A stretch of DNA of 64,000 nt from NCBI GenBank assembly GCA_963734495.1, contig CAVTHK010000009.1, positions 1 through 64,000 of the forward strand. The letters run 5' to 3'. Positions 20,513 through 28,114 of the stretch are shown here, one piece after another. This stretch comes from an uncultured Spirochaetota bacterium (GTDB taxonomy: Bacteria; Spirochaetota; Spirochaetia; SZUA-6; CAVTHK01). Position numbers and translations under genes: made by a program. Position 1 is the stretch's first letter, and each line of letters begins with the position of its first letter. Under the pieces are notes generated by a model. It worked only from the letters and a program-made list of their open reading frames with translations. It searched no databases and had not been told where the DNA came from.

Positions 20513-21577
20513 GCGACGCGATCGCTCGGCGCGGCCGACGGCTGGTTCCTCGAGAACGTCGGCGACGGCGGTCAGCTCAGGCGCATCCCGATCACCATCC
20601 TGCCGTTCCGGATCGGCCGCCGGCACGGGCTCGAGCTGGTGCTGCCGGCCGACTCGGTCTCGAAGGCCCACGCCGAGCTGTACTGGCGCGGCTCCGGCCT
20701 GCGCCTGCGGGACCTCGGCAGCAAGAACGGCACCTTCGTGAACCGCGCGCCCGTCGAGGACGTGCCGCTCAGCGAGGGCGACGTCCTCCACTTCGCGGAC
20801 TTCGAGTTCCGGCTCGGCCGCTCGAGGCCGGAGGAGGCGGAGTCGGCCGGGGTCGGCGACGACAGCACCGCGCCCATCAAGCGGCGCGAGCTGCCGCACG
20901 GCTTCGCCGAGGGCACGCGCGAGCTGCGCGAGCTGCTGCGGGACGGGCTGGTGACGATGGTCTACCAGCCGATCGTGCTGCTGCCGCAGGGCACGGTCGC
21001 CGCCTACGAGGCCCTCGGCCGCGGCCGCCACCCGCAGCTGCCCGAGAGCCCGGCGGAGCTGCTGCGCATCGCCGAGACGATCGGCGCCGAGGCGGAGCTG
21101 AGCCGGCTGTTCCGCAGCAAGGCCGTCGACCTCGTCAAGGACCGCGCCGCGCTGCCCACCGTCTTCCTCAACACGCACCCGATCGAGCTCGCGCGCCCGG
21201 GGCTGATCGAGTCGCTCGAGGAGCTGCGCCGCGCGGCGCCGCAGCTCTCGCTCGCGCTCGAGATCCACGAGAGCGTCCTGACGCGGCCCGCGGTGATCGC
21301 GGAGCTGCGCGCGATGCTGCTGGAGCGCGAGATCGCCCTCGCCTACGACGACTTCGGCGCCGGCCAGGCGCGGCTGCTGGAGCTGGCCGAGGCGCCGCCG
21401 CACTACCTGAAGTTCGACCGCCGCTTCGTGTCCGGCCTCGAGCAGGCCCCGCTGCCGAAGCGGAAGCTGCTCGAGGCGCTGCTGCGCCTCGCGCGCGAGC
21501 TGCACGTGGCGACCGTGGCCGAGGGTGTCGAGACCGCGAGCGAGCCTGATGATATCCACATGAGGATGAGCCTATGA
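20509..21577 (+). CDS. FHA + EAL domain protein, C-terminally truncated at about 21545
   Basis: FRIGR, VSKAHA, DLGSKNGTFVN (FHA); YEAL, DDFGAG, LKFDR, VAEGVET, then unrelated sequence without the final QG motif. Confidence 0.85.
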
Positions 21578-21669
21578 CACCGCCGGGGTCGATCAGGCCG
21601 TACCACAATGACGCAGTCGGCTTGGTTGTCATTCAACCTGGAGCCGCATAACACGTATAAGGCCTTCCC

Positions 21670-22066
21670 TCGTCAAGAGGCGTGAGAAGTCCTGACAACC
21701 GTGTGGCTGCCTCGGGACTGCGCAAGAACACCCGACAAGTTGGTCCGACTTGGTTTCTGCGATGGGTGCAGGAACGCAGCCTGCACCAAACACGTATCGA
21801 GAGTCGCCCGAAGCGCTCTAGAAGACTATTGGTGCCCGACTGCCGTCCGAATCAAAAAAGGGGGTCACCTCGCGGTGCCTCAGTTACTTTTGCGGCTCGG
21901 CGCGGGGCAGACCGCGTATCGGTGTTCCGTTGTCGTGCACAGAGAAAACGGGACCAGGGTGTGCGACCAATCAAATCGTGGGACTTGCCCGAACATAGAG
22001 CGCGCACAGGGATGGCAGTCCAGTTAGGCGTGACAGGTTTGCTGCACACCCTGTCCCTTTCTCTCA
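21670..22066 (-). ncRNA. Putative bridge/seek RNA in the IS 3' non-coding end
   Basis: About 400 nt non-coding end containing CAAATCGT (21972-21979, equals the attC target) and ACACGTAT (21790-21797, equals the IS end), each beside a stem-loop. Confidence 0.65.
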
Positions 22067-23113
22067 TCAACCTCCTTGGTAAAAACGCAGGGGGTCGAAA
22101 GCCTCCTTGTGCTTGAGGATGAAGTAGAGGGTGCGGCCGAGCTTCTGCGCGATGATCGACAGAGCCTTGGCCTTGCCGTACTTGGCGACGAGCTTGTGGT
22201 GATAGAGCTGGGCGGGCTCGTTGTTGCGCAAGAACGTCACGGCCGCCTCGGAGAAGGCCCACTTGAGGTGGACGTTGCCGATCTTTGAGTTGCGCGATCC
22301 GCTCTTCTTTCCTGAAGACTCGCGGGCGCATTTGACCAGCCGCGCGTAGGAGATGAAGTTTCCCGCCGTGGGGAAGCGGCCGATGTCCTGGATCTCGTAG
22401 AGGATCACCAGAGACAACACCTTGCCGATGCCGGGAACGCTGCGGATCAACTGCAGAGCCGCCGGATCGTGATCACGGGCTTGCTCCAGGACCGCGCCCT
22501 CGAGCTTCAGCAGCACTTTGTGGAGAGTGTCGAGGACCTCGCTGTCAGCCTCGACGCTCTTTCTCACCATCGGGTCCTGGAAATGCTCGCCGAGCTCGGC
22601 CCGATTACCACGGTAGTTGATGCGCTTCTCAAAGGCCGCCAGGTTGTACTGCGCGTTGGTGTTCTGGATGTGGGCCAGCAGCTCGCTCTGGTGGTGCATG
22701 AGGTACATGCGGCGGCGAAGCAGATCGCGGGTGGAGCGCATGGCCTGGGGGTAAGCGTAGGCGAGAGGCAGCAGGCCGCCGCGCAGCAGCCCCGCGATCT
22801 TCTGTGAGTCGATCTTGTCGTTCTTGGTCTTGCCGCCGTGAATCGCCTTCATGTACAGCGCGTGACCCAGGACGAACGGGATCGCCTGCTCGGCGCACAC
22901 GTCGGCGATCCAGTACCAGGTGAAGATGCACTCGACCGCGACCACGATGTCCTCCTTGTAGGGCCCGATCGCCTCCACGAGCTGCTGGCGGTCGGTGGGC
23001 AGGTTGCGGTGGAAGACCACCGCCCCCGAAGAATCGATGATGCAGACGTACATGGTCCTTGCGTGCAGATCGATCCCGCAATAGAATCGGTGCTGTCGGC
23101 TGTAGAAGTGCAT
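22067..23113 (-). CDS. IS110 family DEDD recombinase/transposase
   Basis: GIDLH, AVEC, KNDKID, SVPGIG, ESSGK, GNVHLKWAF. Confidence 0.95.
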   Translation of the reverse strand: MHFYSRQHRFYCGIDLHARTMYVCIIDSSGAVVFHRNLPTDRQQLVEAIGPYKEDIVVAVECIFTWYWIADVCAEQAIPFVLGHALYMKAIHGGKTKNDKIDSQKIAGLLRGGLLPLAYAYPQAMRSTRDLLRRRMYLMHHQSELLAHIQNTNAQYNLAAFEKRINYRGNRAELGEHFQDPMVRKSVEADSEVLDTLHKVLLKLEGAVLEQARDHDPAALQLIRSVPGIGKVLSLVILYEIQDIGRFPTAGNFISYARLVKCARESSGKKSGSRNSKIGNVHLKWAFSEAAVTFLRNNEPAQLYHHKLVAKYGKAKALSIIAQKLGRTLYFILKHKEAFDPLRFYQGG

Positions 23114-23195
23114 CGTGGCCTCCTCCTCAAAATCGTTTAGTTGAGCGACGGTAGGTATCCTACCGTACCTCCGAGGGGGAGGCCTTAATAAGTAT

Positions 23196-23305
23196 CAAAT
23201 CGTTGGAGTCGACGCCTTGAGGGCCGACTGGCACTGTCAGCGACGCTTGCACTAAACTGTGAGGGAGGGGAGCCGGCGGCGGCGCGACTCAACTCTATGT
23301 TATGT
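23196..23305 (+). repeat. attC1 (right part; R'' GCATAA lies at 21646-21651)
   Basis: CAAATCGTTGGAGTCG...CGACTCAACTCTATGTTATGT. Confidence 0.85.
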
Positions 23306-23411
23306 TCACCCGAGCCGCGGCGGATGGCGTTTGCGAACACGGCAGGGTAACGGCTGCCTCCGTGGGAAAAGGGACACGGGGGGCTGGCATCGAGGCCGCC
23401 GGTAGTGGACC

Positions 23412-23447
23412 TTGACACTACGTATATGGAGACGCTACATTCATACG
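23412..23447 (+). promoter_or_regulatory. TA cassette promoter/operator
   Basis: TTGACA-18-TACATT with an ACGTAT/ATACGT inverted repeat. Confidence 0.6.
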
Positions 23448-23462
23448 TGAGGAGGGTTTCCA

Positions 23463-23714
23463 GTGACCACAAAGCTCACCCTCAGTGTGGATCGGCAGGT
23501 CGTGCAGAAGGCCAAACGGTACGCTCGCAAGCAGAACAAGAGCCTGTCGCAGCTCGTAACCAACTATCTCAGGCACGTGACGGCCGAGGATTCCGAGGCG
23601 TCTGATATCGACCCGGTTGTTCTCGAAATAGCAGACGAGATACCTCTGGACCGGTTGCCTCGCCACGACGACCCAAAGTACCGCTACCTCAGGGACAAGT
23701 ACCTGCGTGCGTAG
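23463..23714 (+). CDS. RHH-type antitoxin (DUF6364-like)
   Basis: TKLTLSVD..VVQKAKRYA..SLSQLVTNYL; overlaps the PIN toxin gene. Confidence 0.85.
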   Translation: MTTKLTLSVDRQVVQKAKRYARKQNKSLSQLVTNYLRHVTAEDSEASDIDPVVLEIADEIPLDRLPRHDDPKYRYLRDKYLRA

Positions 23715-24135
23715 CGTCTTCTTGGACACCGACGTGATTCTGGATCTCTTTGTTCGCCGCGAACCGCATCATGGTATGGCACTGAAGCTGTTTTCCCGAT
23801 TGCGCAGGTCGAAGGCCAAATGCGTAACCTCCCCTGTCGTGGTAGCCAACCTGTACTACCTGCTGGCGAAGCTACGCAACAAGCCCTACGCCCTGGATCG
23901 CATCCGGCGCTTGCGTAGGCTGGTGGGGATTGCCGCCATGGATGAAACAGTGGTGGAGGCCGCTCTTGCAGCGCCCCACAAGGATTTCGAGGACAGCCTC
24001 CAATACCAGTGCGCCCTCAGGAATGACATCCCAACTCTGATTACCCGTAACGCCGGTGACTTCCCGAAGGACAGAATCACGGTTCTCAGCCCCACCGACT
24101 ACTTGGATATGGTTGCGAGGGAGAAAGACGGGTAA
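23707..24135 (+). CDS. PIN-domain (VapC-like) toxin
   Basis: VFLDTDVILD, DFEDSLQ, ITRNAGDF. Confidence 0.9.
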   Translation: MRSVFLDTDVILDLFVRREPHHGMALKLFSRLRRSKAKCVTSPVVVANLYYLLAKLRNKPYALDRIRRLRRLVGIAAMDETVVEAALAAPHKDFEDSLQYQCALRNDIPTLITRNAGDFPKDRITVLSPTDYLDMVAREKDG

Positions 24136-24252
24136 ACATAAGTATCAAATCGTTAGAGTAGATGCCTGGAGCGCCATCTTCCACGGTCGGCATCGCCGTG
24201 ATAGACTGTGGGCCCGGTAACGGGGGCGGCGCAGCTCAACTCTATGTTGGGC
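24136..24252 (+). repeat. attC2 with a 4-bp GTAT insertion in R''
   Basis: ACATAA-gtat-CAAATCGTT...CAGCTCAACTCTATGTTGGGC. Confidence 0.85.
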
Positions 24253-24391
24253 AGCCTTTGAAATGCCTGCTATGTCGCTGTCATAGGGAAAGCGCGCGCA
24301 CCAATCCCACAACTGCCACGCGTGACGCGTCTGGGCTCCAACGGTGACGCCACACTTGACGGGGATACACGCCATGTACTACACTAGTGTC

Positions 24392-24619
24392 GTGACCAAG
24401 AAGCTTATCCGCCATGGCAACAGCGCAGCCCTCGTTCTCGACAAGGCCCTGCTGGACCTGCTCAAGGTGCAAATCGACACGCCCCTTGAAGTGACTACCG
24501 ACGGGCGCAACATCATCATTTCGCCTCAGGTTAACGAGAAAGCCGAGGCAACCCTTCTGGAGGCTCTCGAGCGTATCAACCAGAGGCACGGATCCGTACT
24601 GGCGAAGCTCGCCAAATAG
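24392..24619 (+). CDS. AbrB/MazE/SpoVT antitoxin (probably leaderless)
   Basis: KKLIRHGNSAALVLDK; TTGACG(24356)-18-TACACT(24380) lies 6 nt before the GTG. Confidence 0.85.
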   Translation: MTKKLIRHGNSAALVLDKALLDLLKVQIDTPLEVTTDGRNIIISPQVNEKAEATLLEALERINQRHGSVLAKLAK

Positions 24620-24620
24620 G

Positions 24621-25022
24621 GTGAGCCGTCGGTTTCTGACAATGGGGGAGGTTCTGCTCGTGCTCCAGGACCAGATCCGCAGGTATGGAGGTACCTACGG
24701 GGTGCGAGACCCGCAGTTGCTGAGCTCCGCATTGGCAATGCCTGCCGCGTCGTTTCAGGGCAAGTACCTCCATAGCGACTTGTACGAGCAGGCTGCCGCC
24801 TACGCATTCCACATATGCCAGAACCACCCGTTCGTGGACGGAAACAAAAGGACCGCGCTGGCATCTGCCCTGGTGTTTCTGTCGCTCAACGGAGTCGACT
24901 TCAACGACCCCAACGAAGACCTTTACAGGCTCATGCTGAAAACAGCTGCCGGCAAGTCAGGCAAGTCCGAGATCTCCGCGGTGTTTCGACGCTTGGCTGC
25001 TTCCAGGCGTGGGAGGAAATGA
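24621..25022 (+). CDS. doc: Doc/Fic family toxin
   Basis: GVRD..LLSSAL, HPFVDGNKRTA. Confidence 0.9.
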   Translation: MSRRFLTMGEVLLVLQDQIRRYGGTYGVRDPQLLSSALAMPAASFQGKYLHSDLYEQAAAYAFHICQNHPFVDGNKRTALASALVFLSLNGVDFNDPNEDLYRLMLKTAAGKSGKSEISAVFRRLAASRRGRK

Positions 25023-25058
25023 CGGGCATCCGACGACGCCGCGTGACAACGGAGGTCT

Positions 25059-25172
25059 GCCCAACAAATCGTTGTCGCTGACGCCTTAACCTCCGACTGG
25101 CACGGGTGGCGAGGCTGGTATAGACTATGGGCTGGGGAGCTTGCGGCGGCGCAGCTCAACTCTATGTTAGGC
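25059..25172 (+). repeat. attC3
   Basis: GCCCAAC-AAATCGTT...CAGCTCAACTCTAT-GTTAGGC. Confidence 0.9.
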
Positions 25173-25460
25173 TGTCCCAGGTCCGTGGCAACCGCGGATG
25201 ACCGCCGGGCATCGGCGTTGCCAACGGCAGTCGGGCTCGTTCCGCAGATTCGCTTGCGGGCGCGACCTCGGTGGCATCGCGACAGGAACGGAGATTCGTA
25301 GGCGATCGGATCAGGTTCCGATCTGGAGATTCGCCTCCCTTACTCCATCCGCTGAGTCCACGGGTGCACGGCTCTGTCACAGTTGTCAGTGCGAAGCACC
25401 CGCCGCTCATTTGACAGAGCCGCCCGGTGTGATGTATTATCATACTATCAGAGGTGCTCT

Positions 25461-25703
25461 ATGCCCAAGTCCAAGATCGCCGTCACCCTCGATCGCAGCA
25501 TTGTCGGAGAGGTTGATAGGCTCGTCAAGCAGCGCGCCTACCCCAACCGTAGCCAGGCTATTGAGGATGCGCTGCGAGAAAAGCTGCTGCGGCTCAAGAG
25601 GAGCCGCTTGGCCAAAGAGGCAGCCAAGCTCGACCCCGCTTTTGAACGCTCGTTGGCCGAACAGGGGCTTTCTCAGGATGCGTCCGAATGGCCCGAATAC
25701 TGA
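25461..25703 (+). CDS. CopG/RHH antitoxin
   Basis: KIAVTLD..EVD..YPNRSQAIEDAL; upstream TTGACA(25411)-18-TATTAT and GAGG RBS. Confidence 0.85.
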   Translation: MPKSKIAVTLDRSIVGEVDRLVKQRAYPNRSQAIEDALREKLLRLKRSRLAKEAAKLDPAFERSLAEQGLSQDASEWPEY

Positions 25704-26026
25704 GGGGTGAGATTCGCTGGGCGGACTTGAACCCCACCCGAGGACATGAACAGGCTGGCACCCGGCCGGTCCTCATCCTGAGCCACGACGTGTTCAACGA
25801 ACGGTCAGGAACGGTCATAGCGATGGCCATGACGAGCCAACCGCAGCGGGCTGGCTTTCCGCTGACTCTTGAGCTCAAGGCTGCCGGGCTACCGAAGAGA
25901 TCCTGGATCAAGATCAGTCAGATTCGCACACTGTCGGCCGAAAGAATAGGCGACAGGATCGGTCGGGCCTCGGCGGAGGAACTCGACCAAGCGATCGAGG
26001 GCCTGAACGAGATCGTCGGAACATAA
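25688..26026 (+). CDS. mazF: PemK/MazF endoribonuclease toxin
   Basis: RGEIRWADLNPTRGHEQAGTRPVLILS, QIRTLS. Confidence 0.92.
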   Translation: MARILRGEIRWADLNPTRGHEQAGTRPVLILSHDVFNERSGTVIAMAMTSQPQRAGFPLTLELKAAGLPKRSWIKISQIRTLSAERIGDRIGRASAEELDQAIEGLNEIVGT

Positions 26027-26134
26027 CAAATCGTTTGAGCTGACGCCTCAAATCTCGCATGGAACGGTCGCCTTAGCTGGTGTACACTGTGGCCTCGGGA
26101 GATTTCGGCGGCGCAGCTCAACTTTATGTTATAC
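26021..26134 (+). repeat. attC4
   Basis: ACATAAC-AAATCGTTTGAGCTG...CAGCTCAACTTTAT-GTTATAC. Confidence 0.9.
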
Positions 26135-26552
26135 GGTTACGCTGCCCCGAGAACTGGCCGGGCGTTGGAGTTCGCGGGGTTCACAGCGATGTACGCGATT
26201 GTCCGCTTCAGGCACCCCCAAAATCTCGGCCAGGGAACGGTGGCCGTCAAGAAACTTGCGCTCACCGACGTCCTGTGCTTGGGCGGCGCGGCGGCTCCGC
26301 CCCACGGAGAGTCGCGAGTGACCATCGGCTGGCTGAGGGCGGGAGCGGAGCCGGGCAGTGCAGCTGACCGAGCGGCCGACACGCTCTCGGTGACGCCCAA
26401 AGACTCGTGGCGGAAGGAGGGGCTGGCGTGTGGTTGGCCAGCAGGCCGGACTTCGATAAGGGCGCGATGGGGCGTAACGGGCGCTGCGCGAGGCCTGATC
26501 TCGACGACCCCCTGGCTCTGGGGATAGGAGACTGATGTGCGGTCACATGGAC

Positions 26553-26663
26553 GCATAACAAATCGTTTGAGTAGACTAAAGTCGAGACTTGCACGGTCGA
26601 TTGAGCACGTATAGACTGTGGACCTGGGAGCTGGCGGCGGCACTACTCAACTCTATGTTAGGT
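26553..26663 (+). repeat. attC5
   Basis: GCATAAC-AAATCGTTTGAGTAG...CTACTCAACTCTAT-GTTAGGT. Confidence 0.9.
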
Positions 26664-26829
26664 AGTGATTGGGCCAAGGTGGGGCAGCGCTGCTGCGTAA
26701 GTGAGGAGCTGTTGGCATCGTGGACACGGGCGCGTTGATTGTTGGTCCCAGCCCCCGGCCAGGCCGCAGAGTGGCGGAAACGGCCCCACGCCGAGTTGTG
26801 AGAACGCTATTGCCTTGACGCGGCAAGGG

Positions 26830-26849
26830 GTATATACTGTCATATATAC
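26830..26849. promoter_or_regulatory. vapBC operator-like inverted repeat
   Basis: GTATATA-N6-TATATAC upstream of vapB; TTGACG at 26815. Confidence 0.6.
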
Positions 26850-26867
26850 TCCGTAGCGAGGTGTGTT

Positions 26868-27101
26868 ATGGACACTGCCAAGCTGTTCAAGAACGGCAGT
26901 AGCCAAGCGGTTCGGCTGCCAAGACAATACGCGATGGCGGGTGACGAGGTCTACGTCAAAAAGGTCAACGGGATCGTCATGCTCATCCCTAAGGACGCCG
27001 ACCCTTGGCAACCGTTTGTCGACAGCCTCACCAAGTTCTCCGGCGATTTCATGGACGAACGTGACCAAGGTGCCTTGGAACAGCGCACCAGTCTGGGGTG
27101 A
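26868..27101 (+). CDS. vapB: VapB antitoxin (AbrB fold)
   Basis: TAKLFKNGSSQAVRLP. Confidence 0.92.
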   Translation: MDTAKLFKNGSSQAVRLPRQYAMAGDEVYVKKVNGIVMLIPKDADPWQPFVDSLTKFSGDFMDERDQGALEQRTSLG

Positions 27102-27502
27102 AGTACCTTCTCGATACCAACATCTGCATCTGCATCATCAAGCGGCAGCCCTCGACTGCCATAGGCCGGATCCGCTCGACGGCACGGGACGATGTTGGTG
27201 TCTCAACGATTACGCTTGCCGAGCTTGAGTACGGGGCGGCGAAAAGCCTCTATCCCGACCGCAATAGACTCGCCCTTCTCGAATTCCTCGTTTCCTTCAA
27301 CATCCTCGACTTCGACCAAGCGGCGTCGAGCCACTACGGTTTGATCCGAGCTGCCCTTGAAGCAAAGGGCAAGCCCATCGGCGCTATGGACATGCTGATC
27401 GCGGCGCAGGCAAGATCAAAAGGCTTGGTGCTGGTCACGAACAACGTGCGCGAGTTCAGACGCGTTGACGGTCTACAGGTCAAGAACTGGGTGGCAGGAT
27501 GA
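27098..27502 (+). CDS. vapC: VapC PIN toxin
   Basis: YLLDTNICI, ELEYG, PIGAMDMLIAAQA, LVTNNVREF. Confidence 0.93.
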   Translation: MKYLLDTNICICIIKRQPSTAIGRIRSTARDDVGVSTITLAELEYGAAKSLYPDRNRLALLEFLVSFNILDFDQAASSHYGLIRAALEAKGKPIGAMDMLIAAQARSKGLVLVTNNVREFRRVDGLQVKNWVAG

Positions 27503-27542
27503 CCACGACCCTCTCAGGAGTTCTTGTCTACAGGCCGGCACT

Positions 27543-27568
27543 ACCTAACGAATTGTTGGAGTAGACGC
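27543..27568 (+). repeat. Truncated attC6 (left arm only)
   Basis: ACCTAAC-GAATTGTTGGAGTAGACGC, with no matching right arm. Confidence 0.6.
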
Positions 27569-27650
27569 TACTGCTACCCGCTCACCGTGATGAACGCCTA
27601 CAGCCGCTACGTGGTGGCAGTGGTGGGGATGCACCGACCTAAACTACCGG
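27566..27650 (+). pseudogene. Fragment of an IS481-like (rve core) transposase
   Basis: RYCYPLTVMNAYSRYVVAV resembles the conserved xYPLTxxDxxSRY segment of rve transposases. Confidence 0.5.
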
Positions 27651-28114
27651 CGGCTGCTGAGCGTCCCGGGGGTCAGGAAGTGCTGGAGTGCCTCCTCCTG
27701 ACCGATATATGCACCTGCCTCCTCGTAGTGGGGCGGGAGAGAGGAAGCACCACGTAACAAGTCGCCGGATCTGGAGCCTCAAACCCCGACCGGCAGCGCC
27801 TATCGCCGGCGCTCATCGCTGCCTTCCAGGAGGTCGAGCGGGATGTCGTTCTGGCGCCGACCTGCGGGGGGACGGGATTGCCTCTTCCATGACCTCATCT
27901 GCCCCGCCAAGCCATTCCTAACAGGTGTTATTTTTGGGGCTACGCTCACTCCGCCCGGTTGTCCGTGTCCGCATTCGGGTCTTGACTCCACGGCTGGCAG
28001 CGCTACACTTGATGGCGGCGAGGCACGGTGGGGTTGAGGGCAGCCCCTGATGGCGCTCGGCGCCTGAGCGTTCGAGGTCGAGCGCGCGGGCGATGTAACA
28101 AAGAGGGTTCGCCT

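Follow-up and report, generated by a model that had tools for sequence, protein, structure and literature searches.

IS1111-group elements that target integron attC sites have reportedly been known since 2008-2009, when they are said to have been described by Tetu and Holmes and by Post and Hall, respectively. For ISKpn4, ISPst6 and ISPa25, a seekRNA that is encoded past the transposase gene and matches both attC strands has been shown or inferred (Siddiquee 2024, PMC11187229), and bridge RNAs in the right end of IS1111 elements have been predicted (Durrant 2024, PMC11208160). We analyzed a window of 64,000 nucleotides (nt) from an uncultured Spirochaetota bacterium (contig CAVTHK010000009.1, positions 1 to 64,000). 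It holds an intact insertion sequence (IS) of the IS110 family, IS1111 group, whose body of 1,542 bp (window positions 21654-23195) lies inside one split integron attC site (21646-23305). The element is very probably an attC-targeting element of the IS1111 type with readable target and donor RNA guides, and the 413-nt region downstream of its transposase gene most likely encodes an RNA of the seekRNA/bridge type. Because attC-targeting IS1111 seekRNAs were already described in 2024, we regard it as a new member of a published class and not as a new principle. An earlier first-pass annotation had proposed a new RNA-guided recombinase with a TG/CA core; two of its four RNA guides and the core held up, the novelty did not.

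The genome assembly contains five full-length copies of the element with 97-100% identity, namely the window copy and four on another contig (C1). All five sit at the same attC position in the same orientation, at TAA-CA-AATCG, and their junctions read xxTAA-CA|CGTATAAGG...TTAATAAGTAT|CA-AATCGTTGGAG, which bears out the split at GCATAA/CA/AATCGTT that the first-pass annotation had placed. Ten unoccupied attC sites carry the exact sequence TAACAAATCGT, the empty site being TAACAAATCG. Since both junctions of all five copies carry CA, which is TG on the transposase strand, and the empty sites have it once, this dinucleotide is the core shared by target and element. Features are given below on the minus strand, that of the transposase, unless a plus-strand reading is stated. 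In the window, the core reads CA on the plus strand both at the right-end junction (21652-21653) and at the left-end junction (23196-23197), where the attC remainder AAATCGTTGGAG... comes next. The insertion point is thus at the 5' end of attC, ...ACGATT-TG-TTAGGC... on the transposase strand, in a single orientation. There are six occurrences of CAAATCGT in the window, where 0.61 would be expected; five lie at attC sites, in line with the conservation among attC sites claimed previously, and the sixth is the guide copy within the element. Judged from its copy number, the element was recently active.

On the transposase strand, the left end reads ATACTTAT followed by TAAGGCCTCCCC, and the right end GGGAAGGCCTTA followed by TACG. 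The left end (23176-23195) is composed of an 8-nt extension, AUACUUAU (23195-23188), and the sub-terminal inverted repeat TAAGGCCTCCCC (23187-23176), the right end (21654-21669) of the 12-nt sub-terminal inverted repeat GGGAAGGCCTTA (21669-21658) and a 4-nt extension, UACG (21657-21654), an architecture common to the relatives described below. The two repeats are 12 bp long and identical at 11/12 positions. Their presence had been noted correctly; they lie 8 and 4 nt from the ends as we measured them, and the distances of 7 and 3 nt given before are obtained if the mismatched first pair is included. Between the ends, the transposase gene (22067-23113) codes for a protein of 348 amino acids of the DEDD/IS110 family with both Pfam domains, the DEDD/RuvC-like N-terminal domain (PF01548, E 1.9e-15, 57.4 bits, cut-off 29) and the IS116/IS110/IS902 C-terminal domain (PF02371, E 3.7e-19, 69.3 bits, cut-off 21.3), and the C-terminal domain aligns with that of the IS621 transposase 8wt6 (E 3.8e-11). 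The gene leaves 82 nt of non-coding DNA upstream and 413 nt downstream of its stop codon (22066-21654), close to the roughly 400 nt estimated earlier.

Relatives were sought by a tblastn scan of one genome per species, which yielded 433 confirmed relatives, and 79 loci with 55-76% identity were kept. These loci derive from many phyla, mostly from metagenome-assembled genomes. In a protein search, at least 8,000 proteins scored at E<=1e-40; among the matches listed, the best non-self match had 90% identity and none attached an IS name to the element, while the PLSDB annotation of plasmid relatives reads only 'IS110 family transposase'. The left end was placed in 72 of the 79 loci and in the window element (73 in total), and both ends with flanks in 53. 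Two alignments were used: A1, with 47 of 53 candidate rows (L008, L054, L065, L068, L072 and L076 excluded; the window element not included), and A2, with 37 of 46 candidate loci plus the window element (L011, L024, L040, L072, L076, L077, L081, L082 and L085 excluded). The family shares the constant pattern flank-TG-ATACTYAT-TRAGGCC ... GGCCTYA-TANG-TG-TTAGG. The right flank, TTAGG, TTATG or TTGGG, reverse-complements the R'' box of attC (RYYYAAC), and the left flank is variable, for example GCAGCGCTT or CAACGATT. By these end and flank sequences, the relatives form a large clade of attC-homing elements, and the diversity of their flanks provides the variation that a covariation test requires. 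The core itself varies in a few loci: the right-end junction reads GG and the left-end junction TG in L010, L018, L022, L044, L047, L048 and L065, and L067 and L072 have GG at both junctions and in the left-target guide. Such GG junctions point to a possible mismatch at the target's first core base, with the crossover at or left of that base.

The 5' module of the non-coding region (21950-22057) is the predicted target-binding loop, or seekRNA core. It begins and ends with the strands of a closing stem (22057-22044 with 21964-21950), between which the right-target guide is followed by an inner stem-loop (22021-22017 with 21985-21981) and then by the left-target guide. The closing stem is present in the minimum free energy fold of the window RNA (z = -3.98). 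Across 47 relatives, 88.7% of its cells are paired, as opposed to 38-49% with the partner slid and 68.6% after shuffling; 172 cells show double-sided changes, and the covariation score is 0.658 compared with 0.10-0.17 for the slid controls, figures that favour the stem somewhat because the structure was derived from the alignment used to score it.

The reverse complement of the right-target guide, GCCUAAC (22023-22029), is made up of the core G and the right flank TTAGGC, that is, the attC R'' box. The guide is located inside a family-invariant motif, CUAACUGG, about 24-37 nt past the stop codon. Over 42 non-redundant pairs, guide and right flank matched at 5.07 of 7 positions on average versus 4.55 when shuffled, a value reached in 0/10,000 shuffles, and the bases preceding AAC track the right flank (UCCAAC with TTGGA, GCAUAAC with TTATGC, CACCUAA with TAGGTG). 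In the source genome, GCCUAAC fits 6-7 of the 7 positions at all five copies. Its best-fitting flank, CCTAAC, was found at 3/5 occupied sites and at 0/10 exact empty sites (Fisher's p ~0.02 by hand count, on small numbers). In eight loci (L011, L019, L021, L077, L081, L082, L083 and L085), the transposase stop codon TAA is the UAA of the CUAACUGG motif, so that coding sequence and guide overlap there.

The left-target guide on the opposite strand of the loop (21967-21979) consists of ACGAUU, the core UG, AU as the first two nt of the left end, and UGG. Its segment ACGAUUUG (21979-21972) had been picked out by the first-pass annotation as the left target plus the TG core; it proved to occupy a family-conserved position and to covary with the left flank. 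For positions -1 to -5, guide and left flank agreed at 2.80 of 5 positions versus 1.85 when shuffled (61 non-redundant pairs, 0/10,000 shuffles), and for positions -6 to -9, the agreement in the same pairs was at chance level. In the window element, the match extends to 10 nt, ACGAUUUGAU, a length reached in 4/2,000 dinucleotide-preserving shuffles of the 397-nt region. The family motif for this guide, N5-8-UUGAUUGG, usually lies about 115-150 nt past the stop codon; in the window, it lies only 88 nt past it, since the apical hairpin of most relatives is missing. The pairings of the right- and left-target guides would overlap at the core G. The fold and covariation check across homologues that had been proposed for this locus found guides that covary with their target sites and helices that are conserved.

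Downstream of the target loop, every relative carries N2-AUANG-UG-UU-UGGUGC. In the window, this left-donor guide region, CGAUACGUGUUUGG (21786-21799), combines AUACG, the last five nt of the right end, with UG as the core and UU as the first two nt of the right flank. In 40/44 relatives, N is the same base as the one at the variable position of the right-end TANG, against 36% expected (0/10,000 shuffles; 44 non-redundant elements, after three had been dropped whose right-end call was not canonical). This agrees with the earlier assignment of AUACGUG (21797-21791) to a donor end plus core. The match extends to nine nt, AUACGUGUU (21797-21789), as it did in 1/2,000 shuffles, and the left-target and left-donor matches were reached jointly in 0/2,000. 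Directly 3' of the guide stands the hairpin GGUGCAGG...CCUGCACC (21765-21787), also anticipated and now found to be conserved: its UGGYGC...GCRCC is kept in relatives with U/C to A/G switches, and in the diverged copy C1d on contig C1, the change C301U retains a G-U pair. In all, 53 positions differ in copy C1d; 35 of these changes fall inside the 413-nt region, and the three guides are unaltered.

In the family fold, the left-donor guide lies in a multi-branch region closed by a helix of CUGC with GCAG. One branch has a covarying base helix, CCCYY/RRGGG, and the other is, in the window, the hairpin AGAGCGC-UUCG-GGCGACUCU (21800-21819), which parts the two donor-side joiner strands and shows compensatory changes in the family alignment (columns 180-185 with 283-289). 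One joiner holds the left-donor guide; the other, ACCAAUAGUCUUCU (21820-21833), is the site of the family's candidate right-donor guide, which reverse-complements left-end positions 3-9 and reads GAUGAGU or AAUAAGU ahead of UUCUAG. A right-donor guide that reads the left end is not established. We rejected UAUGAGG/UAUAAGG after GGACGG as a donor guide tracking the sub-terminal repeat, because it is a strand of the helix that covaries with the upstream CCCCUY/CCCCGC. In both left guides, the two nt past the core match the partner DNA, which we offer as a suggestion of a handshake-like arrangement; the pattern shows one clade-level switch each (AA in L076-L085; UA in L024/L033), and L012, L042 and L056 are counter-examples.

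A second module resembling the target loop is nested in the donor multi-branch. This internal loop, GCAAAAGUAACUGA ... hairpin ... CCCUUUUUUGAUUCGGACGG (21843-21893), takes the form N5-UAACUG, hairpin, N5-UUGAxU-GGNCGG in relatives (L010-L084), with its anchors in 58/73 elements and its flanking helices conserved. It may be a protein-binding scaffold. A bolder and rather unlikely reading is that it is a working third module that reads or holds DNA, and that the clade uses a three-loop guide RNA aimed at attC independently of the clinical ISKpn4/ISPst6 lineage, with the crossover displaced by 5 bp. What is invariant in the target loop (UAACUG ... UUGAxU) recurs in the second loop, and on this reading, the second loop might hold on to the invariant TTG|TTA in the centre of attC or of the integrated junctions, for example at excision or on folded attC. 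If true, the RNA would differ both from the bridge RNA of IS621, which has two loops, and from the short seekRNA of IS1111 elements.

Taken together, we favour an element guided by an RNA that the 413-nt region most likely encodes. Its 5' module (22057-21950) would fold into an internal loop with a long closing stem, with GCCUAAC on the 5' strand and ACGAUUUG on the 3' strand, and the pairings of the two with the target would overlap at the core G. The left-donor guide would read the right end of the element itself. Joining of the ends in a circle would form a promoter, TTGACG-18-GATACT, before the transposase gene and, through the gene, the RNA. The -35 half of this predicted promoter, TTGACG, lies at 21671-21676, and its -10 half, GATACT, is the core G plus the left end; the joined ends do read as the first-pass annotation had stated, and TTGACN-N17/18-GA[TA]A[AC]T was found across the simulated circle junctions of 48/54 relatives. 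The predicted junction promoter fits those known for this family. By analogy with IS621, ISEc11 and ISKpn4, we infer that the region would be transcribed, that its RNA would be bound by the transposase, and that strand exchange would take place at TG.

Several observations weigh against this interpretation. Several of the anchors in relatives came from custom regular expressions, and at least one of the anchors, in L009, was misplaced; pairs were counted on the very alignments from which the consensus structures had been predicted. The cognate match between left guide and left flank in relatives, with its mean of 2.8/5, is far from perfect. The signal for the candidate right-donor guide is weak (3.90 vs 3.64 matches, 82/10,000 shuffles), and the window's own candidate, CAAUAGUC, is an imperfect counterpart of the expected AAUAAGU and differs in copy C1d. 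The variable bases of the second loop covary with none of the right flank, the left flank, the first-loop guides, the left end, the right end or each other, the best of these partner tests giving 170/5,000 shuffles (left end) and the rest 332 to 2,397. The five copies may represent four independent insertions, because the window copy and C1:4674-6243 have an identical left flank, and the source assembly is 83% complete and 4.7% contaminated. An Rfam search of 21000-24000 at E<=10 returned three sub-threshold chance matches only. The sole evidence from RNA libraries comes from two low-depth contigs of relatives (corresponding to 21897-22221 and 21732-21951), in which neither the strand nor the exclusion of DNA can be read; among sequencing runs, the best DNA run shares 0.48 of sampled words and the RNA runs share 0.05-0.07. 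A circle junction was not present in the covered parts of the contigs examined.

The alternative that survives best, though we consider it improbable, is that the 5' module (about 22057-21950) alone is functional and reads only the target, the transposase recognizing the ends through the sub-terminal repeats and the 3' two-thirds of the region being a precursor tail or having another role, such as promoter or regulatory. A short seekRNA of 82 nt was enough for transposition of ISEc11, the role of the long form being left open (PMC11187229), and IS1111 sub-terminal repeats are long, here 12 bp; the weakness of the right-donor guide in the window element and the second loop without a DNA partner also speak for it. 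Against it stands the left-donor guide, which agrees with the right end at its variable base in 40/44 relatives, lies in a conserved joiner between covarying helices, and is unaltered in the diverged copy C1d.

Far less probable is that no RNA guide exists, that the internal copies of the junctions are relics of captured target or end sequence, and that the protein alone recognizes the sequence or structure of attC. In its favour, each of the two internal matches is identical to an integrated junction (flank, core and the partner's two nt), as a relic would be. However, the matches occupy fixed positions in a conserved, covarying RNA structure in many phyla and vary among relatives together with the flank or end, and RNA guidance was demonstrated experimentally for other IS1111 elements (PMC11187229). 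Hardly tenable, finally, is the original guide map, with GCACGACA at 21938-21931 as the right-target guide and AUCG at 21763-21760 as the second donor guide: GCACGACA does fit the window copy's right flank at 6/8 positions, and CGAU and AUCG flanking the hairpin are self-complementary in the window copy, but about 1.08 such 6/8 matches are expected by chance, the CCTAAC flanks of other copies fit worse, the segment is variable and unaligned among relatives, the 4-mer AUCG is not conserved there and does not covary with its would-be partner, the CGAU before the left-donor guide, and the conserved, covarying right-target guide lies instead at 22029-22023, 5' of the left-target guide.

The integron setting of the element was also surveyed. 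Two integron integrase genes in the genome scored above the TIGR02249 cut-off (C11:2484-3419 and C1:17065-18003), and the four IS copies on C1 sit in the array adjoining the C1 integrase; the same search of the genome placed no integrase gene near the window array on the window's contig. Arrays of attC sites were seen at four contig starts or interiors (window 21646-27800, C1:1-18003, C11:1-3419 and C18:900-6100). Two attC sites, at 24136-24153 of the window and near 212010-212024 of contig C13, read CATAA-GTAT-CAAATCG, not CATAA-CAAATCG. The extra GTAT is the last four nt of the element on the plus strand and the expected remnant of a deletion between the left-end TTAT and the right-flank TTAT. 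Both sites look like scars of lost copies, and the added bases would spoil the right half-site for re-insertion. Downstream of the split attC (23463-26026), the cassettes encode small paired proteins of the toxin-antitoxin type by the look of their translations (23463-23714 with 23707-24135, 24344-24619 with 24621-25022, and 25383-25703 with 25688-26026).

The locus is of interest as a cleanly delimited, multi-copy example in which three of the four IS1111-type RNA guides can be read directly and in which empty, occupied and scarred sites occur in one genome. With 433 relatives in species genomes and at least 8,000 proteins scored at E<=1e-40 in the protein search, attC-homing elements of this type are abundant beyond clinical integrons. 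Their bearing on integrons is that they interrupt attC sites, five of them in this genome, and probably prevent the excision of cassettes. Tool builders could draw on the target, core and donor guides that vary naturally across the family and on a conserved extra loop.

Compared with the described systems, the element has the marks of the IS110 family in its two Pfam domains and in site-specific insertion without a classical target duplication, with one short shared core. The features described for the IS1111 group are short terminal extensions flanking sub-terminal repeats that measure 7-17 bp, a transposase of 330-350 amino acids and a longer downstream non-coding region (PMC11187229), all of which were found here. 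As in the attC-targeting members, the insertion is near the attC 5' end and antisense to the cassettes (PMC3001079). The only IS-labelled tblastn matches were to the ISGsu4 family (about 33%) and the ISHvo10 family (25.8%). Among 305 PLSDB tblastn matches at E<=1e-5, of which the best had 57.6% identity, there was no enterobacterial resistance or clinical-integron plasmid, so that the transposases are probably distant from those of the clinical attC-targeting IS1111 elements. A match on a P. aeruginosa plasmid (34%) was rejected as an attC element because its ends and its target are different. The closest relative found in a cultured organism is an 'IS110 family transposase' element (WP_011998811.1, 52.6% amino acid identity) on the Vibrio campbellii ATCC BAA-1116 plasmid NC_022271.1; by eye, it has the same ends, the CUAACUGG motif, the second loop, and a left-donor guide CAAUAUGUGUU facing the right end ...CATATG-TG-TT, in another host and with other flanks.

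IS621 likewise has a DEDD recombinase and two short guides per DNA that address both strands and overlap at a 2-nt core, its left guides pairing with the bottom strand and its right guides with the top strand, and its RNA reads the element's own joined ends, as the RNA here probably does for the right end. The differences from IS621 are that the RNA here lies 3' and not 5' of the gene, that its target-loop guides stand in reverse order and its donor guides in a multi-branch, and that the element has long sub-terminal repeats, TG instead of CT as its core, and an extra target-loop-like module (PMC11208160). With ISEc11, the element shares an expected circular intermediate, a promoter across the joined ends (Pjunc) and a short structured RNA just past the stop codon, the latter two being predicted here, whereas ISEc11 has a linear-sequence target in place of attC and a much shorter non-coding region (PMC11187229). 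ISKpn4, ISPst6 and ISPa25, together with ISPa21, come nearest: they have the IS1111 organization, a guide RNA past the gene, and a top-strand match 5' of the bottom-strand match (PMC11187229), as here, where GCCUAAC precedes ACGAUUUG. The ISKpn4 target ...GAACGAATTGTTAG aligns with ...CAACGATTTGTTAT of our element (PMC13604230, Table 1, as printed). The crossover tabulated there for ISKpn4, ...GAA*CGAATTGTTAG compared with ...CAACGATT-TG-TTAT here, lies 5 bp left of the TG core, and the insertion point here is correspondingly 5 bp from the AA*CG or AG*CG printed for ISKpn4, ISPst6 and ISPa25; CGATT-TG-TTA places it closer to the R'' box by 5 bp. Long seekRNAs of the ISKpn4 group measure 148-151 nt (PMC11187229), as opposed to the 413-nt non-coding region here. 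The element therefore departs from the known kind in a crossover 5 bp off that of ISKpn4, a 413-nt RNA region, a second loop module and a large environmental clade; the displaced crossover and the extra RNA module are its only unusual features, and the published principle is unchanged.

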